The position numbers were made by a program, and so were the translations under genes. The notes beneath the pieces were generated by a model that saw only the letters and a list, made by a program, of their open reading frames with translations, was not told the DNA's origin and made no database searches. This document shows, in pieces, positions 3,610-56,077 of a stretch of 64,000 nucleotides of DNA; the first letter of the stretch is position 1; the number at the start of each line of letters is the position of its first letter. This stretch comes from an uncultured Phycisphaerales bacterium (GTDB lineage Bacteria; Planctomycetota; Phycisphaerae; SM23-33; FEN-1343), in assembly GCA_963785635.1 (NCBI GenBank), contig CAWAWB010000015.1, forward strand, positions 1 to 64,000. The letters are read 5' to 3'.

Positions 3610-3837
3610 GAGAAATTCTCCCGAAAGCCCCGCCGCGACCAATGCACGCGCATCCCGGCGACAAGGGCAGCCTGCCCAGCGCTTATGGCTGGAGCGAAGA
3701 CTGTATGGGAATACTATCCCCGCGTCAACGGCGATTTGCAATGTCCGCCGTGGCGGACATTGCCGCGGCGAAGCTGAAAGCGGAGCCGGGAAGGCGAAGC
3801 CGGGCAGGTCTATGTGGCACAGCCGCGCTGTGGCTTT

Positions 3838-4595: not shown

Positions 4596-6168
4596 ATGTT
4601 TACTCTTGGCCTAACCGATAGCCCCGCCCTGCCGGCGGACACCATCACCATCTTTCTGGCGCTGGGCATCATCTTCATCCTGTTCGTGCTGCTGGTTTCG
4701 TTTTTGAGGCGGTACAAGCGCTGCCCCTCCAACAAGATCCTGGTCATCTACGGCAAGACCGGCTGCGGGCGCCTCCAAGTGCGTGCACGGCGGCGCGGCC
4801 TTCGTCTGGCCGCTGTTCCAGGCGTACGACTACCTGGACCTGGAGCCCTTCGTCATCCCCATCGACCTGTCCAACGCCCTCTCGCAGGAGAACATCCGCG
4901 TGTCGGTGCCCACCACGGTCACCGCGGCCATCTCCAACCAGAAGGGCATCATGGAAAACGCGGCCATCCGCCTGCTGGGCCTGACCACCCAGCAGATCCA
5001 GACGCAGGCGCAGGACATCATCATCGGCCAGATGCGCGCGGTCATCGCCACCATGAAGATCGAGGACATCAACCGCGACCGCCAGTCGTTCATGGGCAAG
5101 GTGAACGAGGCCGTGGCCGTCGAGCTGGAGAAGATCGGCCTGGCCGTCATCAACGTCAACATCCGCGACATCGAGGATGAGTCGGGCTACATCAAGGCCA
5201 TCGGCCGCAAGGCCGCCGCGGAGGCCATCAACCAGGCCAACATCGACGTGGCCGAGCAGGAAAAGAGCGGCCAGACCGGCGTGGCCCAGCGTAACCGCGA
5301 TCAGCGCGTTGCCGTGGCCGCCGCCATCGCCGATGCGGAAATCGGCGAGGCCACCGCCGCGCGGAACAAGCGCCAGCAGGTGGCCAAGCTGGATGCCGAG
5401 GCCGTCAACGCCGAAACCGCGGCCAATGCCCAGAAGGCGGCCTACCGCGCCAACCAGAAAGTGGCCGAGGAAGAGGCCCGCAACAAGGGCGAATCGGCCG
5501 CCAAGCAGGCCGATGGCTCCATTCGCGTGGCGCAGGAGCAGGCGCAGAAGAACGCCGAGGACGCCCGCGCCATCCGCGAGACCTCGCGCCTGAACGCCGA
5601 GATCGTCGTGCCCGCCGAGGCGGAGAAGAAGCGCATCATCATCGCCGCCGAGGCCCAGAAGGAGCAGACCATCAAGGTGGCCGAGGGCCAGAGGCAGCAG
5701 TCCATCGAGGTCGCCCAGGGCCAGGCCCAGGCCATGCTGGCCAAGATGACCGCCGAGGGCCAGGGCACGCAGGCCGTGCTGGATGGCAAGGCCACCGGCT
5801 ACCGCAACCTGGTGCAGTCGGCGGGCGACCCGCAGACGGCCACGGCCCTGCTCTTGATCGAAAAACTGCTGGAGATCTCCAACATCCAGGCCAAGGCGAT
5901 TTCCGAACTGCCCATCGAGAAGATCATCATCTGGGATGGCGGCGGCAACGGCGATGGCGGCGGCCTGTCCACGCTGGGCAAGCGCATCATGGGCGCACTG
6001 CCCCCCATGCACGAACTGGCCCGCCAGGTGGGCCTCGACCTGCCGGAGTTTTTGGGCAAGGTGGGTAAAGGCACGGAAGGCGGCCTGGGCGGTGCGGGTC
6101 CAAAGGATGGAAAGACGCCTCCCGCCGCGCCGGATGGACCGGCGAATAAGGTGATGCCGGTGAAGTGA
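4596..6168 (+). CDS. flotillin (SPFH/band-7 family, FloT/YqiK-like), reading frame interrupted near 4765-4785
   Basis: N-terminal TM anchor plus RRYKRCPSNKILVIYGKTG (frame of 4596). GGAAFVWPLF... and a long Ala/Glu/Lys-rich flotillin coiled coil (frame of 4783). The two frames join at a C-rich run. Confidence 0.8.
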
Positions 6169-6208: not shown

Positions 6209-6264
6209 CCCCTCCCCCTTTTACGGGGGAGGGTGGCCCGAAGGGCCGGGTGAGGGTTCTTCGG
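6209..6264 (+). repeat. 55-bp double-hairpin repeat element, copy 1 of 3
   Basis: Sequence cccctcccccttttacgggggagggtggcccgaagggccgggtgagggttctt. Near-identical copies at 41611-41667 (+) and 49304-49357 (reverse complement). Confidence 0.85.
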
Positions 6265-7615: not shown

Positions 7616-8159
7616 ATCATGCTTGCACGAAGTGGCCGACGTCCCCATTAATTCCCATTCCTGCAGTCACGTGAGCCGAAGGCTCGCGCCATCAAATCAA
7701 TTCTGTTCTGCGCCTTTCCTCTTTCCTCTGGACCTTTGTCCCGGTGCCGTGGCTGCAACCCCTCTCCCTTGGGAGAGGGCTTGTCCTGCGAAGCTTCAGC
7801 GGAGCGGGATGCCCCGAAGGGGCGGGCTTGCCCTGCGAAGCTTTAGCGAAGCAGGGTGAGGGTTTTCCAGCAGCCACGTCTCTGGCATCGTCATATATAA
7901 GTGCCTGTCTGATAGGCTATTATGATCGACTCCTACCACAACACATTTTTCCTGCCATTTTCTGCATTTTACACCTTTACAGAATCTGGCTAACCATGTA
8001 TCATAATACTTGTCATGGTAATGCAGATTCCAATGTGGAGGATCAGAAAGAGGGATACGGAAAATTCCAGCCCCGAACCATTCCCAGAATCGCGCGGCGG
8101 AGAACCTTTGCCTTTGCGGCCGCGCAAACACTCGAGTGAACCGGGATCGCCAAAGGGCT

Positions 8160-31078: not shown

Positions 31079-31153
31079 TATGCGGCGCGGATCACCTCCA
31101 GGCCGCGCGACCCTCACCCTACCCTCTCCCAGGGGAGAGGGGTAAAGAAGGGC

Positions 31154-33262: not shown

Positions 33263-35295
33263 ATGAAAAAGGTACTGGTGCTGCTGGGTCTGGTTGCCGC
33301 CATCGGCTTATGCTGGTGGCTGGCGACAAAGAGCGCTCGGCAGACAACCACTGGGACCGCCGCGCCAAAACTTCCCCAGGCCGGGAGCTTTGCCTATCAC
33401 GGCGAGCTGCCCCGCGAATTTCACGAAGCGCCCGTGCTTACCCAGCAGGTGCGCGCGGGCAGACTTCCCCCCGTAAAAGAGCGCCTGCCGGATGAGCCGA
33501 TGGTCGTGCCGGTGGTCGAGAAGATCGGCACGTACGGCGGCACGTGGCATCGCGCCTTCACCGGGCCGACTGACTACCAGAACATCGATCGGCTGATGCA
33601 CGATTTACTGCTGTGCTTCGATCTGGACGGCCGAACGCTGCTGCCCAATATCGCCAAGAGCTGGGAGACAAGCGAGGACGGCCGCGTGTTCACGTTTCAT
33701 CTGCGGCCGGGAATGAAATGGTCGGATGGGGAGCCGTTCACCGCCGATGATTTTGTCTTCGCCTACGAGGATATCGCCCTGAACGACGAAATCAACTCGC
33801 GCAAGCCCGACGCTCTGCGTCTGCGCTCATTGAACGGCCCATCAGAATTTGGCCGGCTGGAAAAAGTGGACGACTTCACCATCCGCTATGTCTTCCCCCA
33901 GCCCAATTACACGTTCATCGACATGGCCGCCGGACTGACAGTCGGCGGCCAGTACGCGCGCGCGTGGGAGTTCCCGCCGTTCGCGCCCGGCACTACCTCA
34001 AGCAGTTTCTCCCCAAGTACGCCGGGGCGGAAAAACTGGAGATGTTGGCCAGGCAGGAGTCGGTTTCCAACTGGGTGGTTCTCTTCCAGAAAAAAGCCCG
34101 TCCGTCTGAAAATCCCGATCTGCCCGTGGTGGGTCCGTGGCGCGTGGCGGCGCCCATGACCGACCAGGTCTGCAAACTGGAGCGAAACCCCTATTACTGG
34201 GCGGTCGACCCCAACGGAAACCAGCTCCCGTACATCGACAACATTTCTCTTCAGCTCACGCAGGAACTGGAGGTGCTGAATCTGCGGGCGATGAGCGGCC
34301 TGATCGACATGCAGCACCGCCACATCCAGTTGGCCAAGTATCCCCTGTTCATGGCCAACGCCAAAAAGAACGGTTACCACGTGTATTGCTGGCCCGGCCT
34401 GTGCGGATCAGAGGCGGCGGTGCTGTTTAACCAGACCTGGCAGGGCGATGCGGAAATAGAAAAGTGGCTGCAAAGCAGGGAATTCCGCGTCGCGCTGTCC
34501 CTGGCGACCGACCGGCGGCAGATCAACGAGCACATTTTCTACGGCCTGGGCGAACCCCGACCGTTCATGGCCCTGGCGGGCAATGTTTATTACCCCGGCA
34601 AGGAATACGAGTTCAAGAACGCCGGATTTGACCTCGCCCAAGCCAACGCGATGCTGGACAGGCTGGGCCTGAACCGGCGGGATGATGCGGGCTACCGGCT
34701 GCGCAGCGATGGCGAAGGCCGGCTCGAGTTGACTATTTCGCTGCCCACGGGCCAATTGCTGGATTACGTGGCTATCGCCGACCTGCTCGTCCAGCAGTGG
34801 GCCAAGGCAGGCATCAAGCTGGACATGGCCGTGGAAGACCGCACCCTCTGGTCCATGCGGCGAGCCACGAACCAGCAGCAGCTTTCTATCTGGGAAGGCA
34901 CAGGCGCGGAGGATCCCTGGTCGGGCGGGGGCACGATCGTGGCCATCGGCGGCAGTTCCGGCATCGCCTCGGCCGTCGGTTTGTGGTGGATGACCGACGG
35001 CGAAAAAGGCCAGCCGCCCACAGGCGATATTCGCAGGCTCCTGGAGCTGTATGAGCGCGGCCGCGCGTTGCCGCTGGATCAGCGCATCGAAATCGGCCGG
35101 GAAATGTGGCGGATTCACGCGGAGAATCAGTTCGTGCTGGGCCTGGTGGGCAACTCCCCCGCCTTTAACGGCGTGGTCATCGTGAAGAATAACTTTCACA
35201 ATGTGCCGGAGCTTGCGCCGAATTCCACGTTCCTGCAAAACCCCGGCATCGCGCGGCCGGAACAGTTTTACATGGATGCTCCGGCCGCCCGGTAA
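33263..35295 (+). CDS. second family-5 substrate-binding protein (paralog), frame interrupted near 33975-33990 (1-bp loss in a C run)
   Basis: About 45% identical to 31154..33220 along its whole length. Joined at ...WEFPPFAP|RHYLKQFLPKYAGAEKLE. Confidence 0.8.
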
Positions 35296-44395: not shown

Positions 44396-44677
44396 CCGGT
44401 TCTATTGGTGCGACAGCTTCGCGCAGACATTACGCAACCGGCGCTAGGCCGGCTGAAGAGCTATTTGACAAGTGAATAGTGAAGAATCGAGCCCGGTGTG
44501 ACAGGCGGCCAAGGTTTACATAGCGGTGCCAATCACACCGCCTGCCGCCCGGAATAAGCGCTACGTTCGCGTTAAGATGGGTAAGATAGAAAGGCCAATT
44601 ATGCAAATCTGCATAAGGCGTCTAGGTTTTACAAGGACTTACGTTATGCAATATGCAATATTGCATAATGAATAACG

Positions 44678-49303: not shown

Positions 49304-49357
49304 GCAAGAACCCTCACCCGGCCCTTCGGGCCACCCTCTCCCGTAAAAGGGAGAGGG
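49304..49357 (-). repeat. 55-bp double-hairpin repeat element, copy 3 of 3 (reverse complement), directly downstream of the E1 gene
   Basis: Sequence caagaaccctcacccggcccttcgggccaccctctcccgtaaaagggagagggg. Confidence 0.85.
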
Positions 49358-49390: not shown

Positions 49391-51862
49391 TCATACGCCC
49401 TCCCTCGCCCGCCGAAGCTGGTCGGCCGCATCGCACGCGCGCTGCACGGAGTAACCTTTAAGGGGCAGCACGAACGTGTGTACTCCATCCAGGATGTCCG
49501 AGACCTGCGGGAAGAAGGCATCCTCCACTTCATCGGCCGGCGTGATCCAGTTGCGGGCGCCCACTACCACGGGCGGTGCATCCAGCTCATCGAAGGCCAG
49601 TTGCGTAATGTTGGAGGCCATGGTGTGGAGGTAACTGCCGCGCTCGCAGGCATCGCTGGCCAGGAGAATCTTGCGGGTCTTGGCGACCGATTCCAGCACC
49701 GGCGCATAATTGAAGGGCACCAGCGACCGGGCGTCGATGATCTCCACGGAGAGGCCAAACTGTTTTTCCAGCGCGGCGGCGGCATCCATTGCCCGGTACA
49801 GGGTCGCGCCGATGGTGAGGATGGTCAGATCGCTGCCGGTCTTCTTGATGGCCGGCTCGCCGATGGGGATCTCGTAGCGGCCCCGCGGCACGCCGCCGCT
49901 CTGGAACAATTCGGGCATGTCGTAGATCCGCTGGCTCTCGAAGAAGACGACCGGGTCGGTGCCGGTAAGCGCCGAGTACATCAACCCCTTGGCATCATAG
50001 GGCGTGGCGGGGAACACGACCTTCAGGCCCGGGATGTGGGCACACATGCTCGTCCAGTCCTGGCTGTGCTGGGCGCCGTACTTGGAGCCCACGGACACCC
50101 GCAGCACCACGGGCATCTTCAAAAGCCCGCCGCTCATGGACTGCCACTTGGAGAGCTGATTAAAGATTTCATCGCCCGCGCGGCCCATGAAGTCGCAATA
50201 CATCAGCTCCGCAATCGCGCGGCCGCCTTCCAATGCATAGCCCACGGCCGTGCCAACGATCGCGCCCTCGGAGATCGACGAATTGAAGAGCCGATGATAC
50301 GGCAGCGCCTCGGTCAGGCCGCGATAGACGGCGAACGCCCCGCCCCAGTCGCGGTTCTCCTCGCCGTAGGCGATCAGCGTCGGATCGACGTAGAACTGGT
50401 CGAGAATGGCCTCGAAGATCGCGTCGCGCAGGACCACGCACTTCTGCTTGGAGATAGGTTTGCCCGCCTCATCCAGGCCAAAGCGGCTGCGATTGGCCAG
50501 TTGCTGCACGCGCGGATTCTCCTCCTTGGCGATCAGCACTTCCGCCTTGCGGTTGGGCGCCAGCGATTCGACCTTGGCGTTGGAGAACATTGTCTTATCC
50601 AGCAGGCAGCCGCTCGCCTTCAGGTCCTCGCGCGGCGAGATGGTCAGGTCGGTGGCCTTCTTGAAGGCCTTCAATATCAACGTTTCGGCCTGCGCCGTGA
50701 TGGCGTCGATATCCGCCTGCCCGCACACCTTGGCCGCCACGAGCTGCTGGGCGAAGTTCAGGAGCGGATCGACCTGCTGCCAGCTTTCCAGCTCCTCCTT
50801 GGTGCGATAGCTGGAGGCATCGGAAGGCGAGTGGCCGCTGAAGCGGTATGTGATGGTGTCCAGCAGGACGGGCCCATCGCCGCGCTTCAGGATTTCCTTT
50901 TTGCGGCGGAAGGCGTCGATCACGGCCAGCGGGTTGTAGCCATCCACGCGCTCGGCGTGCACCTGCGTGGGGGAGAGGCCCGCGCCCAGCCGCGCGAGGA
51001 TGCCGAAGCCCATGGTTTCGCCCACGGGCTGGCCGCCCATGCCGTAAAAATTGTTCACGAAATTGAAGATGATGGGCAGTCCGCCGCGATGGGCCTGATC
51101 CCACAGCAGCTTGAACTGGTCCATGTTGGCGAAGCACAGCCCTTCCCACACGGGGCCGCAGCCGGCGGAGGCATCGCCGATATTCGCCACGATAATGCCG
51201 CCGGCCTTGTTTACGTGCTTGAAGAGAGCCGCGCCCACGGCGATATCGCCCGAGCCGCCCACGATGGCGTTGTTGGGGTAGATGCCAAAGGGCGGGAAGA
51301 AGGCGTGCATGGAGCCGCCCATGCCCTTATTGAAACCCTCGCGCCGGGCAAAGATTTCCGCCAGGGCGCCATAGATAAGGTAATCGATGGCCAGTTCGGT
51401 GACACTGCCGTGCTTGCCATCATCCACCACCCGCAGCGTGGCGCCGCCGAAATAGTTTCGCATGATCCGCATGAGCGCCGAATCATCCAGCTTGGCGATG
51501 GCGGACAAACCCTTGGCCAGGATCTCGCCGTGGCTGCGGTGGCTGCCGTAGATATGGTCATCCACGTTCAGCACGAAGGCCTGCCCCACCGCCGCGGATT
51601 CCTGTCCCACGGACAAGTGAGCGGGGCCGCGATGGTTGTACTCGATGCCCTGAAAACTGCCCTTGAGCTTGACCTCGTTGAGCATGGACTCGAACGCGCG
51701 AATGATGGCCATGTCGCGCTGTATGCCCAGCAGCTCATCGCGGCTGTAATTGGCGGTTTCCTGGGCGATAGTCTTGTTGTACTGGCAGACCGGAATCGGC
51801 TGGAACTGGATCGTGCCGCCACTACGCTCGCGCTTGGGATCGATCAACTGAGACTTCGGCAT
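49391..51862 (-). CDS. 2-oxoacid dehydrogenase E1 component, fused alpha-beta (TPP-dependent; acetoin/pyruvate/branched-chain type)
   Basis: 823 aa. The N-terminal half is E1-alpha-like (TPP-binding [13 protein letters not shown]...). The C-terminal half is E1-beta/transketolase-like. Intact, with no frame breaks. Confidence 0.88.
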
Positions 51863-51954
51863 GACTACAACTCCTCATTTCGATTGCGGATTGCGATTGC
51901 GGATTGACTCAACTCAGTGAAGGTTCAATCAGCCATCGCAACGTGCAACCTGGT

Positions 51955-52779
51955 TCATGATTTATTCTCTGAAAGAACCGCCTCGGTGGGCGGTGTGATA
52001 ATCTCGATTTTCCGCTCGTGGAGAAAACGTTGCCATTCGGCTGAAGGAGCGCGATCCGTGATAATCACCGATACTGCATCCCATTCGATGATGCGGCACA
52101 GCGAGGGGGAGGTGAACTTGCTGTGGTCGGCCAGCACCACGGTCTGCCGCGCATTGCGCACGGCCAGGCCGAAGAGGTGCGCACTTTCGATGTCGCTGGC
52201 GGTCAGGCCGAATTCCATGGACAGGCCGTCGGCCCCGATGAACGCGACATACCCTCTCAACCGCTCCAGCGCGGCCGTGGCCAGGGGGCCGATCGTGTCC
52301 ATCCGCCCCGGGCGATACTGGCCCCCGAGCATGATCACGTTGACGTTGGGGGAATCGAGCTCCAGGGCCAGCCGCGCGGAGTTGGCAATGACGGATAGGC
52401 CTTTCTTGCTCTTTAAATGCGGGATCATTTCAAAGCAGGTCGTGCCGGAATCGACAAAAATCTGATCCCCATCCTCCACCCGCGCGGCAGCCAACTGCCC
52501 GATAATTCGCTTGGCCTCCACGTTACGTAAGGCCTTGGAACGAAATGAGAAATCGCTCTTTTTGGGCAGCACCGCCCCGCCGTACACCAGCTCCAGCTCC
52601 CCCGCCTTGGCCATGGCGTGCAGATCGCGGCGAATGGTCGCCCCGGAAGCACCCAGCGATGCGGCCAGGGCAGAAGCGGTAACTTCTCTCTGTTCAAGCA
52701 ATTGCGCAATAATACGGTCGCGCCTCTGGCGTGTGGATGATCGCGTTGCGAAGCCGGGATTTCCGAACTTGTCGGTCAT
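51955..52779 (-). CDS. DeoR/GlpR-family transcriptional regulator
   Basis: N-terminal HTH (RQRRDRIIAQLLEQREVTASALAASLGASGATIRRDL) and DeoR C-terminal sugar-phosphate-binding domain. Confidence 0.85.
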   Translation of the reverse strand: MTDKFGNPGFATRSSTRQRRDRIIAQLLEQREVTASALAASLGASGATIRRDLHAMAKAGELELVYGGAVLPKKSDFSFRSKALRNVEAKRIIGQLAAARVEDGDQIFVDSGTTCFEMIPHLKSKKGLSVIANSARLALELDSPNVNVIMLGGQYRPGRMDTIGPLATAALERLRGYVAFIGADGLSMEFGLTASDIESAHLFGLAVRNARQTVVLADHSKFTSPSLCRIIEWDAVSVIITDRAPSAEWQRFLHERKIEIITPPTEAVLSENKS

Positions 52780-52892
52780 GCTACAGATATTATTACATCA
52801 AACCTGCTCAATTGCAACAGTTTTATGAGCATTTAGTGATCAACTTCGATTGACTACTGATTATCTATGCCGTATAGTTGAAGTGGAAGAAA

Positions 52893-53068
52893 GGCGTTAC
52901 GGATCATGGAACTGGGGAATTTCCCCAGTTCCACAATCCGTAACACGCTTTTCCGACTGCCCAAATTGGGCAGTCGTCGGCTTGGTGGATCAGGTGTGTA
53001 GCGTATACACCTGCGGTCAAGGCAACAATTCAACTGGCAACCGTTGCCAGTTGCACGACCCGACTGAT
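52893..53068. promoter_or_regulatory. array of four distinct palindromes in the DeoR-E2 divergent intergenic region (candidate operators or 5-UTR hairpins)
   Basis: gttacggatcatggaactgggg-aattt-ccccagttccacaatccgtaac (22-bp arms, 2 mismatches). cgactgccc-aaatt-gggcagtcg. ggtgtgta-gcg-tatacacc. caactggcaac-cg-ttgccagttg (11-bp perfect). Confidence 0.5.
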
Positions 53069-53082
53069 ATGGATCGAAATAG

Positions 53083-54606
53083 ATGAAGAAGCTGACACTG
53101 CCTGAGGCGGTAAAGGGAATGATGAGCGGCACCATAATGGCCTGGCTGAAAAGGCCGGGCGATGCAGTTGCCGCAGGCGATGCGCTGGCCAAGGTGCAGG
53201 CCAAGCGCGACATTTTCATTGTCCAATCGCCTGCGGCGGGAAGGCTGGGTGAGATTGCCGCCCCGCAGGGTGCAACGGTCGGTGTGGGAGAGCCCATCGC
53301 GATGCTTGCCGGTGAAGGCGAGACCGCCGCGCCTGCTGCGTCGGCACAGAAAACGCCGGAGCAAGGAAGACCCGCGGCCCCCCCCGCCGCTCCTGCCGGA
53401 GTTGTACCCATCCTCATGCCCAAGGCGGGCAATTCGATGGAGGAAGGCACGATCGTCTCCTGGAAGGTCAAGGAAGGCGAGCGGATTAACAAGGGACAGA
53501 TTCTATTTGAGGTGGAGACAGACAAGGCCGTCGTGGAAGTGGAGGCGGATGTCGCCGGGCGCCTGGCTAAGATCATCGTCGGCGAAGGGCAGACGATCGC
53601 CGTCCTCCAGCCTGTGGCGTATCTGGCGGAAGATGATGGCGCCGTGGCCAATTTCCTGAGTGCGCATGGCGCGGCCGCCGCGCAAGGTGGCGCGGGTCAG
53701 GCTGCGCCGGCAAAGCAGCCATCACCGGTGGCGGCGCAGGCCGCCGCGCCGGCCTGGACTGGCACGCCCGGCAGGGAAGGCCGTCCCAAGGCCTCCCCCG
53801 CCGCGCGAAAGCTGGCTAATGAGCGAGGCGTGGATTTATTGGCCATGGCGTCAGGCAGCGGGCCGGGCGGAAGGATTCTGTCCCCCGATGTGGCCGCCGC
53901 CGTGGCAACAGGAGCGGCCCCCGCCGCACCCGCGCCGGCTGTGGAAGGCGTGGTCTTTCGCCCGCTGGGCCGAATGCGGAAATCCATCGCCAAGAATCTC
54001 ACGCTCTCCAAGCAGACCGTGCCGCATTTTTACATCGAACTGACCATCAATGCCGGCCCCATGATGGACTTCTATCGGCAGGAGAAGGCGAAATATCCGC
54101 TGAGCGTCAACGACGTGCTCATTCGGGCATGCGGGCAGGCGCTGATGGAGTTTCCCGCATTCCGGCGGCGGCTGGAAGGCGATCAATACGCAGAATATCC
54201 TTCGGCCAATATCGGCATGGCGGTGGCCATGGAAGATGGACTCGTCGTGCCCGTGGTTGTGGGCGTGGAGAAAATGAACCTCGAGGAACTGGGGCGGCAG
54301 ACGGCGAAATTGGCGCAGGCGGCCCGCGGCGGGCGCATCGAAACCGCCGCGCCGGCGGTCATGACCATCAGCAACCTGGGCATGTTCGGCACGGAGCGCT
54401 TCAGCGCCATCATCAACCCGCCGGAGGCCAGCATCCTGGCCGTGGGAGCGGTGCGCGAGGAACCCGTCGTGTCCGAGGGTAAAATCATTCCCGCGCGGCG
54501 GCTGACCATGACGCTAAGCTGCGATCATCGCGTGGTGGACGGCGTCATCGCCGCCAAATTCCTGGCGCGGCTGAAGGAACTTCTGGAACAGCCGGCGGCG
54601 GGCTAA
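53083..54606 (+). CDS. dihydrolipoamide acyltransferase (E2) with two lipoyl domains; the first domain is non-canonical at the lipoyl-Lys motif
   Basis: Second lipoyl domain with EVETDKAVVEVEA. E3-binding region. Catalytic C-terminus ...SCDHRVVDGVIAAKFL. Confidence 0.88.
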   Translation: MKKLTLPEAVKGMMSGTIMAWLKRPGDAVAAGDALAKVQAKRDIFIVQSPAAGRLGEIAAPQGATVGVGEPIAMLAGEGETAAPAASAQKTPEQGRPAAPPAAPAGVVPILMPKAGNSMEEGTIVSWKVKEGERINKGQILFEVETDKAVVEVEADVAGRLAKIIVGEGQTIAVLQPVAYLAEDDGAVANFLSAHGAAAAQGGAGQAAPAKQPSPVAAQAAAPAWTGTPGREGRPKASPAARKLANERGVDLLAMASGSGPGGRILSPDVAAAVATGAAPAAPAPAVEGVVFRPLGRMRKSIAKNLTLSKQTVPHFYIELTINAGPMMDFYRQEKAKYPLSVNDVLIRACGQALMEFPAFRRRLEGDQYAEYPSANIGMAVAMEDGLVVPVVVGVEKMNLEELGRQTAKLAQAARGGRIETAAPAVMTISNLGMFGTERFSAIINPPEASILAVGAVREEPVVSEGKIIPARRLTMTLSCDHRVVDGVIAAKFLARLKELLEQPAAG

Positions 54607-54654
54607 TATGCTCTGTTGCCGTGACGTTTGCGGCCGCGACTAGATGGGAATCAC

Positions 54655-56077
54655 ATGAGCAAGAACCATTTCAATATCGTGCTGCTCGGCTCGGCCCGGG
54701 CGGCTACATCGCGGCCATCAAGGCGGCGCATCTTGGCGCATCCGTGGCCGTGGTGGAAAAGGCGCAACTGGGCGGCACCTGCCTCAATAACGGCTGCATT
54801 CCCTCCAAGGCGCTCCTGGCCTCGGCGGCGATGATGCACGAGATCGGCGAGGCGGGCAAGCTCGGCATCAAGGTTGCGGGTGAAGTCATCTGCGACTGGA
54901 CGGCCGTGCAGCAGCGCAAGGACCGCACGCTGGCCCGCCTGCGGCAGGGCATCGCCAATCTCTTCAAGGGCGGCAACATCGAGCTTTTCCAGGGCACGGG
55001 CAAGCTGGATGGCCCGGGGCGAATCGCCGTGATGGACGCCAAAGGCCAGACGCAGATTATCACCGCCGACAAAATCGTGCTGGCCACGGGCTCGGTGCCT
55101 TCGCGGATCCCCGGCTGGCCGACCGATCCGGCGCTGGTGTGCACCTCGGATGAGGCGCTGCACTGGAAGGACCTGCCTGGGCGCCTTTTGATCGTTGGCG
55201 GCGGCGTCATCGGCTGCGAATTCGCGTGCATGATGCAGGCCGTAGGCGTAAAGGTGACGGTAGTGGAAATGATGCCGCGACTTTTGCCGGAGATGGATAG
55301 CGACCTGTCCGCCGAGCTAACCAAGGTCTTTAAAGCGCGGCAGATCGCCTGCCACGTGGGTACGAAGGTTGCGGATCTCTCTATCGCGGATGGCCGCGTG
55401 AAAGCGCGGCTGGATAATGGCCAGACGATCGACGCCGACCGCGTGCTGGTGGCCACGGGCCGCCGCGCGGCCACGCAGGATATTGGCCTGGAAAGCGTGG
55501 GACTCACAACCGACCGCGGCTTTATCCGCGTGAATGACCGGATGGAAACCGCCGTCAATTGCATCTATTGCATCGGCGACGCCAACGGCCGCATTCTGCT
55601 GGCCCACGCGGCCAGGCGCAGGGCGAAGTCGCCGTGGCCAATGCGCTCGGCGCAAATCGAATCTTCGATGCCCCGGTGCCGCTGACCGTGTACACGTTCC
55701 CGGAGATTGCCGGCGTGGGCCTGACCGAAGAGCAGGCGGACAAGCGGAACATTCCCATCTCCGTGGGCGCGTTCCCCATCGGCTACCTGGGCAAGGCCAT
55801 GGCGGTGGGACACGGCGAGGGCATGATCAAGGTCATCCGCGACCACTCCAATGATGCGCTCTTAGGCGTACACATGTTCGGCCACAACGTGACGGAGGTA
55901 ATTGCCTGCACCACGGCCATGCTGGGCGAAAAGGCCACGGTGACTGAACTTGCCGAGACGATCTTCGCCCACCCGACCATCTCCGAGGCGGTCAAGGAGG
56001 CCGCCGAGGATTCCTTTGGCCAGGCCATCCACCTGCCGCCGAAGAAGGTGGTTTCAGTCATGGCGGGAGTCGTTTAA
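54655..56077 (+). CDS. lpdA: dihydrolipoamide dehydrogenase (E3), two frame interruptions near 54697 and 55612 (1-bp losses)
   Basis: FAD-binding MSKNHFNIVLLGSG|PGGYIAAIKAA, redox-active GGTCLNNGCIPSK, NAD-binding region, and dimerisation domain in the third ORF (...AHPTISEAVKEAAE). Confidence 0.85.

Follow-up and report, generated by a model that had tools for sequence, protein, structure and literature searches.

Candidate ParB-type DNA sites stacked in the predicted leader of an E2-E3 operon of an uncultured Phycisphaerales bacterium

We analyzed 64,000 nucleotides (nt) of contig CAWAWB010000015.1 from an uncultured Phycisphaerales bacterium (assembly GCA_963785635.1; this whole stretch is referred to as the window), in which four palindromes, H1 to H4, fill positions 52894-53053 between a DeoR-family regulator gene and a divergently transcribed E2 gene. 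Three of the four are perfect. By comparison of their sequences, it is well supported that the units of this block belong to a family of sites associated with ParB-like proteins of mobile elements, and we favor, with moderate confidence, the reading that the block is an orphan, lineage-specific cassette whose heterologous ParB-type sites lie in the predicted leader of E2 and would be bound in trans and affect E2-E3. The four palindromes that the original prediction had placed upstream of E2 are all present, while its arm lengths had to be revised: H2 has arms of 11 base pairs (bp) and not 9, H3 has 10-bp arms with one mismatch and not 8-bp arms, and H1 is a composite with a nested perfect core. 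The block is made up as follows.

Window-specific block, 52889-53060: about 165-170 bp, from the conserved promoter to the E2 start codon, delimited by alignment with relatives.
H1, 52894-52948: composite palindrome with outer arms GCGTTACGGAT and ATCCGTAACaCGC around the H1 core; RNA hairpin of -44 kcal/mol.
H1 core, 52907-52933: perfect 13+1+13 palindrome TGGAACTGGGGAA-T-TTCCCCAGTTCCA, the GGGG type of the ParB-like-associated family.
H2, 52954-52976: perfect 11+1+11 palindrome CGACTGCCCAA-A-TTGGGCAGTCG, in the family frame with a new core variant.
H3, 52991-53013: CAGGTGTGTA-GCG-TATACACCTG, with 10-bp arms, one G-T mismatch, and a 3-nt centre.
H4, 53031-53053: perfect 11+1+11 palindrome CAACTGGCAAC-C-GTTGCCAGTTG.

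This clustering is well beyond chance. Eleven perfect hairpins with arms of at least 9 bp and loops of at most 5 nt occur in the 64 kb, three of them in the cluster, and when one mismatch is allowed the window holds 22 hairpins versus 5.9 ± 1.6 in Markov shuffles. The palindromes had been described as all different and unrelated in sequence, and this description does not hold, as H1, H2, and H4 are 23-bp odd palindromes that have the frame ACTG-N11-CAGT in the same register and form one family. The frame occurs three times in the window, each time within the cluster, versus 0.37 expected occurrences. H1, H2, and H4 also conform to the longer frame CNACT-N4-AA-N-TT-N4-AGTNG, with the inner pair AC/GT of H4 representing an 'A/C' variant that is also seen in a viral contig (L018; comparison loci carry our L numbers). 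H3 is the weakest of the four and fits this frame loosely, with 9 of 11 positions symmetric when it is scored as an odd palindrome and with a CAGGTG head. Neither further copies of H1 to H4 nor other family palindromes were found elsewhere in the 64-kb window, and the 24-64 kb part that was examined for phage or plasmid genes has none.

Matches to the palindromes lead to mobile elements. An exact 25-mer of the H1 core is present in three JGI metagenome contigs (L015-L017) that represent one Mu-like phage element, where it lies inside an open reading frame (ORF) for a 293-residue ParB-like protein, directly upstream of a 739-residue ORF and a MuB/TniB-like ATPase; PHROGs names the 293-residue protein 'ParB-like partition protein' and the neighboring ATPase a DNA transposition protein. 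With its centre base left free, the H1 21-mer recurs in 14 viral stretches whose flanks are entirely different (consensus CAACTGGGGAA-N-TTCCCCAGTTG), and one 34-kb virus holds at least five copies. In PLSDB, Leptospira interrogans plasmids have an H1-type 21-mer within the gene annotated as parB and a further copy ahead of the neighboring ParA-type ATPase gene, and a site with 23 of 24 H1-type bases is found inside an Agrobacterium plasmid gene for a 'ParB N-terminal domain-containing protein'. The H4 23-mer is present on the minus strand of the viral contig L018, with the centre base G (complemented), inside a homologue of the 293-residue protein, and the same gene carries a second variant, CCACTGGCAAC-G-GTTGCCAGTGG, 100 bp from the H4-type site.

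The other two palindromes yielded no matches in exact viral scans, and no exact ParB-linked match was found for H2. In register, H2 agrees at 9 of 11 arm positions with CAACTGTCCAA, the site in the ParB-like gene of L038 (null P about 0.001), and is also close to CGACTGCGCAA, a member of a stack of such palindromes in L079. H3 shares eight consecutive arm positions (8/11, null P about 0.009) with the perfect palindrome GAGGTGTGTGA-T-TCACACACCTC at L083:10498. This locus is a Mu-like prophage from a Verrucomicrobiota metagenome-assembled genome, and the palindrome is part of its ParB-like gene; Portal_Mu, an S24 repressor, and a TniB-like ATPase are encoded there as well. Through whole-palindrome matches for H1 and H4 and partial ones for H2 and H3, each window palindrome thus has a counterpart inside a ParB-like gene. 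A relaxed H2 scan gave a single match, a coding repeat of low GC content (L073) that we judged to be due to chance. The GenBank phage collection gave no meaningful DNA match to the block and two weak protein matches to the ParB-like protein.

The Mu-like element of L015-L017 contains one more palindromic feature. Between two divergent small genes (L016 874-940), which by eye only resemble ribbon-helix-helix (CopG-like) repressors, the hairpin TGCGTTACATTGCGCTACAACGTAACGCA (L016 909-937) covers the early rightward promoter, and its outer arms, GCGTTAC/GTAACGC, are the outer 7-mers of H1 in the window. This 7-mer may tentatively be taken as a second link of H1 to this phage.

The association of site and gene extends beyond these individual matches. 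A viral scan with the degenerate pattern CAACTGNNNAANTTNNNCAGTTG, in which palindromy of the free triplets served as the control, returned 57 matches, 25 of which are fully palindromic in the free triplets versus about 1 by chance. The palindromic matches lie inside a ParB-like gene in ten viral loci, and one more (L035) abuts parA, while none of the 32 non-palindromic matches is in or beside a ParB-like gene. The reverse test, starting from the protein, found an in-gene 23-bp odd palindrome with at least 9 of 11 arm matches in all four loci that were fetched (L083, L085, L086, and L087). Most homologues of the ParB-like protein carry PF02195. Family sites follow the consensus CNACTnnnnAA-N-TTnnnnAGTNG, with variants, and are located inside the parB-like gene and around parA-parB operons where these are present. 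In one viral contig (overlapping loci L056 and L058), a parA-parB operon is accompanied by seven copies of the AGG variant, with two in parB, one just downstream, two in a parA-proximal position outside the gene, and two listed from the overlapping L056. A duplicated fragment of the parB-like gene (KKRLGRDGKTRFKNATEEFPQL...) lies outside the parA gene in this contig (L058 1540-1817, L056 13259-13529), is parA-proximal, and contains two palindromes; site clusters seem to grow by duplication of the gene piece that holds the site.

Two properties of the embedded palindrome bear on what it is. In homologous genes it lies before or after the helix-turn-helix and is translated in all three frames (as TGEIPQL, LGNFPS, and NWGNSPV), which argues that it is selected as DNA and not as peptide. 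Moreover, base 5 of the half-site varies in step with the residue at the third position of the motif VD[x]KTV in 43 of 43 cases (Fisher P = 3e-8, a value that ignores phylogeny, with bases inferred from protein signatures), as follows.

Third residue H: base 5 is G, 36 of 36.
Third residue D or G: base 5 is C, 6 cases, two of which may be regex artefacts.
Third residue N: base 5 is A, 1 case.

Divergent helices go with divergent sites: CSPTTV is found with CAACTGTCCAA (L038), VSHTFA with CAACTGGCAAC (L018, as in H4), and VGNQMV with GAGGTGTGTGA-T-TCACACACCTC (L083). By these signatures H1 would be of the 'VDHKTV' type and H4 of the 'VSHTFA' type, with H3 near 'VGNQMV' and H2 near 'CSPTTV'. In all family variants complementarity reaches the single centre base, as would be expected more of duplex DNA contacted by a protein dimer than of an RNA hairpin, whose loop is unconstrained. 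Together with the identity to gene-embedded sites, this favors a site in double-stranded DNA over an RNA structure under selection. Family members appear to be the cognate double-stranded DNA sites of ParB-like helix-turn-helix proteins of Mu-like phages, phage-plasmids, and plasmids.

Two further observations concern these proteins. In L025, L044, and L076 (Agrobacterium pAtCFBP5507b, 33321-34664), the ParB-like proteins whose genes hold the palindrome have long C-terminal extensions with DPPW/DPPH- or NPPY-type motifs, and, read by eye, these extensions appear to be DNA methyltransferase domains. In many homologues the native peptide before the helix-turn-helix (EFPDLS, WPDQS; L087 1944-1966) resembles the palindrome-encoded GEFPQL, a hint that the linker at this position gave rise to the site or made room for it.

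Orphan stacks of family sites were also encountered outside the window. A scan of viral sequences for two family frames within 30 bp returned mostly unrelated low-GC coding repeats, and real stacks were found only in L024, L030, and L079, which belong to one viral family. Each of these stacks has three to six different family members in 60-150 bp, between the portal and capsid-protease genes and beside a terminator, and the individual palindromes vary among the related elements. The gene order is terminase, portal, stack, capsid/protease, decoration protein, single palindrome, AlpA-like gene, and integrase. The single palindrome, CCACTTCCAAC-G-GTTGGAAGTGG with an extra half-site (L024 9643-9665, L030 1242-1264), lies about 48 bp upstream of the AlpA/excisionase-like gene and resembles an operator whose cognate protein is provided in trans. 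No ParB-like gene was detectable in the DNA examined of these three loci, which look like satellite-type elements with orphan sites; the window cassette would be a second example of an orphan stack.

The gene context that had been given for the block, an E2 gene and a divergent DeoR gene, was confirmed. E1 and DeoR are encoded on the minus strand, divergent from E2 and E3 on the plus strand, and the position of the E2 start codon aligns with that of relatives.

E1, 49391-51862, minus strand: fused alpha-beta E1.
DeoR-family regulator, 51955-52779, minus strand: Pfam domains HTH_DeoR and DeoRC.
Predicted deoR promoter, 52789-52817, minus strand: TTGCAA-17-AATAAT, with the TTGCAA element kept in relatives.
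Predicted sigma-70-type E2-E3 promoter, 52850-52878, plus strand: TTGACT-17-TATAGT, 10 of 12 consensus matches in the scan.
E2, 53083-54606, plus strand: two lipoyl domains, E3-binding domain, and acyltransferase; its predicted leader holds the cassette.

With the predicted promoter, E2-E3 transcription is expected to start near 52885, which places the palindromes at about +10 to +169 of the transcript. The E3 gene (dihydrolipoamide dehydrogenase, 54621-56077) is split near 55613 by a single-base frameshift, such that residues 64-391 of the L014 orthologue align to window frame 3 and residues 392-544 to frame 2; it may be either a pseudogene or the product of an assembly or sequencing error.

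The original prediction had raised the possibility that DeoR binds the palindromes, and the comparison across related genomes speaks against this: of the two refuting observations named with that prediction, the lack of conservation in orthologous regions was made here. The closest relatives in the protein database have DeoR proteins that are only 77-79% identical, and three of the relatives' loci (L001, L013, and L014) have the same E1-DeoR | E2-E3 synteny as the window. The DeoR|E2 intergenic region is about 135-145 bp long in these three versus 303 bp in the window, and the palindromes are missing from all three. All four sequences align over a shared core of about 100 bp, with TTGCAA in every one of them (as ATTGCAA in three), an invariant -35 box (GATTGACT), a 17-nt spacer, and a -10 box in which just the first two bases (TA) are invariant. 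Past this core the leader of the relatives measures 35-45 nt; at the same place the window carries the palindromes, which account for about 165 additional bases. In eleven related loci (L001-L011), the DNA upstream of DeoR showed no hairpins resembling those of the window. The DeoR recognition helix reads ATIRRDLHAMA in the window and ATVRRDLHAMA in relatives without the block, so that the DeoR operator would be expected in the shared core and not in the block. It is thus well supported by these alignments that the block is a lineage-specific cassette and not a set of DeoR operators, and DeoR would be a neighbor of the cassette rather than its partner.

Host operators in a wider sense, for DeoR or for other transcription factors of the bacterium, are for the same reasons very improbable. 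A divergent regulatory region beside deoR and a palindromic form that suits dimeric regulators would favor them, but the sites lie downstream of the promoter, share no common DeoR-type consensus, are absent from orthologous regions despite the conserved recognition helix, and recur identically in unrelated phage and plasmid genes. The deoO1/O2/OE sites of E. coli are likewise palindromic and near the deoR gene, whereas the window sites are not conserved with the regulator. The alternative suggestion of several regulators fares better in one respect, as the four sites approximate four specificity types of ParB-like helix-turn-helix proteins, but none of these proteins is encoded within the window.

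The spacer on the other side of DeoR had been reported to carry a GGATTGC array, and this array is real: it spans 51877-51906, consists of 2.3 copies of the 13-nt unit ATTGCGATTGCGG, and occupies the spacer from the DeoR stop to the E1 start. Three relatives have long inverted 9-mer arrays in this spacer (CACAAAGAT/CACGAAGGA ... CCTTCGTG/CTTTGTG; L001 4826-4999, L014 about 4660-4875, L013 about 1738-1907), and those of L001 fold as one long hairpin (z = -4.7). With a tandem array in place of inverted arrays and an extra palindrome block, both regulatory spacers of the locus have been remodeled in the window lineage.

Our results lead us to propose that the cassette sites would be bound in trans by dimers of ParB-like proteins from resident or invading mobile elements. 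Given their location, about +10 to +169 in the predicted transcript, occupied sites would block or silence transcription of E2-E3, which would tie the operon to the presence of mobile elements. An unoccupied cassette would have a very stable four-hairpin leader as its sole effect. The most likely role of the cassette would then be that of a transcriptional roadblock or sensor.

Several points weigh against this proposal. No ParB-like gene was found in the 64-kb window either by tblastn or with a profile of 120 homologues at E ≤ 10. H2 and H3 are assigned to the family by partial in-register similarity only, at the P values given above, and the exact H2 21-mer in Saprospira plasmids is a plain A-tract/stem/T-tract terminator that we judged to be a chance match. 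The link between ParB-like protein and site is a comparative one for every member of the family, and the promoter, and hence the 'leader' position, is a predicted one. In addition, a single partition system would not need stacked sites of different specificities, and the cassette could be a functionless recent acquisition.

This last alternative, in which the block came recently from a phage or satellite and the perfection of the palindromes reflects youth or hairpin-templated repair, is substantial, and while we consider it improbable we take it to survive best among the rivals. It would account for the absence of the block from all relatives compared, for its uniqueness in the 64 kb, for the lack of a nearby gene for a cognate protein, and for the finding that similar stacks are modules in one viral family. 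On the other hand, no flanking phage sequence accompanies the block, and no clear terminal repeats or target duplication were found at its edges. Three of the four palindromes are perfect, and long palindromes of this kind tend to be unstable. A position that falls just between the promoter and the start codon is also unlikely to leave an E2-E3 operon unaffected.

A role at the RNA level, with four leader hairpins that modulate mRNA stability or translation or attenuate transcription and with the likeness to ParB sites reflecting only the origin of the DNA, is also a substantial rival and to us a slightly less probable one. The conserved promoter lies upstream of the block, which should therefore be transcribed, and to this extent the earlier suggestion of a structured 5' untranslated region is fair as a prediction. 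Folding is extreme, with a z-score of -9.5 for 52860-53100 and -8.6 when starting at the predicted transcription start, and with single-hairpin energies of -12 to -44 kcal/mol. On the plus strand H1 is followed by a weak terminator-like tail, CGCUUUUCC, with four U residues, and the satellite stacks are intergenic and beside a terminator. However, U-tracts are absent after H2, H3, and H4, and the scan for Rho-independent terminators found none on the plus strand and scored H1 on the minus strand only. An Rfam scan of 51500-53500 returned only matches to microRNA models, at 20-28 bits versus cut-offs of 50-100 bits, and the same operon has a leader of about 40 nt in relatives. Pairing up to a one-base centre is not something that RNA selection would maintain, and the same sequences occur inside coding regions, where covariation with the helix-turn-helix indicates DNA recognition; both observations favor a double-stranded DNA site over a selected leader structure.

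Little can be said for a mobile palindromic repeat of the host genome, similar to repetitive extragenic palindromes (REPs), their clusters known as bacterial interspersed mosaic elements (BIMEs), or miniature inverted-repeat transposable elements: the stacked extragenic hairpins, the strongly structured transcript, and the palindrome nested within H1 resemble enterobacterial REP/BIME clusters, and the genome has another repeated hairpin family, but REPs are imperfect, follow one consensus, and are present in hundreds of copies per genome, whereas the window palindromes are perfect in three of four cases, mutually different, unique in the 64 kb, without a GTAG-type head or clear terminal inverted repeats or target duplication, and also seen within protein-coding genes that phages and plasmids carry in other phyla. 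A check for REP-associated transposases covered part of the window proteins. The other hairpin family, CCCTCTCCC-loop-GGGAGAGGG, has four copies in the window (6210-6233, 7756-7783, 31122-31141, and 49334-49357, the last just downstream of the E1 stop) and could be either a repeat of the REP kind or a terminator that this genome uses by preference. Two other strong palindromes in the window are unrelated to the ParB-type family, GCAATGTCCGCC-GT-GGCGGACATTGC at 3738-3763 (12-bp arms) and TTATGCAATATGCAATATTGCATAA at 44642-44670.

Other candidate explanations were rejected on simpler grounds. The palindromes have no GTTRRRY core as in attC sites, their spacing is off by one base for a LexA box and the context is unfitting, and telomere-resolvase sites are even palindromes. 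Flanks without phage similarity do not fit a degraded prophage remnant, and the gene context is intact on both sides, which does not fit an assembly artefact.

Returning to the proposed ParB-type cassette, its closest known relatives are the parS sites of ParABS systems, which are palindromic double-stranded DNA sites, often within or beside parB, and whose specificity variants track the helix-turn-helix of the protein. The copy inside the parB-like gene and the copies upstream of parA in Leptospira plasmids and in L056/L058 fit this pattern, and the Leptospira plasmids lcp1-3 have functional parAB-rep modules (PMC4338851). In contrast to the canonical 16-bp parS, the sites described here are 23-bp odd palindromes, and their proteins are non-canonical and ParB-like, many of them without a ParA partner. 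Some of these proteins are encoded directly upstream of MuA/MuB-like genes. In Mu-like roseophages, ParB homologues to which no function was assigned have been noted immediately ahead of the genes for transposases A and B (PMC5488378). Others are apparent fusions to a DNA methyltransferase, judged from motifs read by eye; fusions of a phage ParB-CTPase fold to a methyltransferase have been catalogued, with their role unknown (PMC12704722). The window sites further differ from parS in being orphan, in having four specificities, and in their location in a gene leader.

Regulation by ParB-family proteins outside partition is exemplified by KorB of RK2 and VirB of Shigella, which act on transcription through dispersed parS-like operators. 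Use of this type would account for the single palindrome that precedes the AlpA-like gene of L024 as well as for a site within the leader of an operon. For KorB and VirB, however, regulator and sites are on one replicon, whereas here the sites are chromosomal, no cognate gene is in view, and several specificities are stacked. The late promoters of P4 carry sites for P2 Ogr-type activators, a form of satellite-helper cross-talk in which an element without the regulator carries its sites and responds to another element. The stacks of L024, L030, and L079 fit this arrangement, while a chromosomal metabolic operon is not a satellite and the helper for the stacks is hypothetical.

We further speculate, with low confidence, that a stack of heterologous ParB-type sites works as a device that provides docking sites for the ParB-like proteins of several Mu-like phages or phage-plasmids on a host chromosome and, independently, on satellite-like elements. 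Such a device could be a multi-phage sensor that switches the adjacent operon, or a decoy that titrates ParB-like proteins and leads to incompatibility or interference. A third option is local immunity against transposition, in view of the MuA/MuB-like genes that immediately follow the ParB-like gene.

We found no description of this palindrome family in the literature searched, by sequence string or by topic, and such an absence is not proof of novelty. While parS-like sites themselves are known, orphan, multi-specificity parS-like sites in an operon leader are what is new here. If our reading is correct, it would define the cognate DNA site for a large, otherwise uncharacterized group of phage and plasmid ParB-like proteins, including those encoded beside Mu-type transposition genes and the apparent ParB-methyltransferase fusions, the latter of which raise the idea of a clamp-like loader that delivers a methylase from a defined site. 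The readable specificity code, in which H, D, or N goes with G, C, or A, makes these proteins directly testable. For annotation, a note of caution follows: a regulator gene may have striking palindromes next to it that are not its operators. Such sites would be able to become orphaned and stacked in the leader of a host operon and in satellite-like elements, and this would suggest cross-talk between ParB-like proteins of mobile elements and genes that are not their own.

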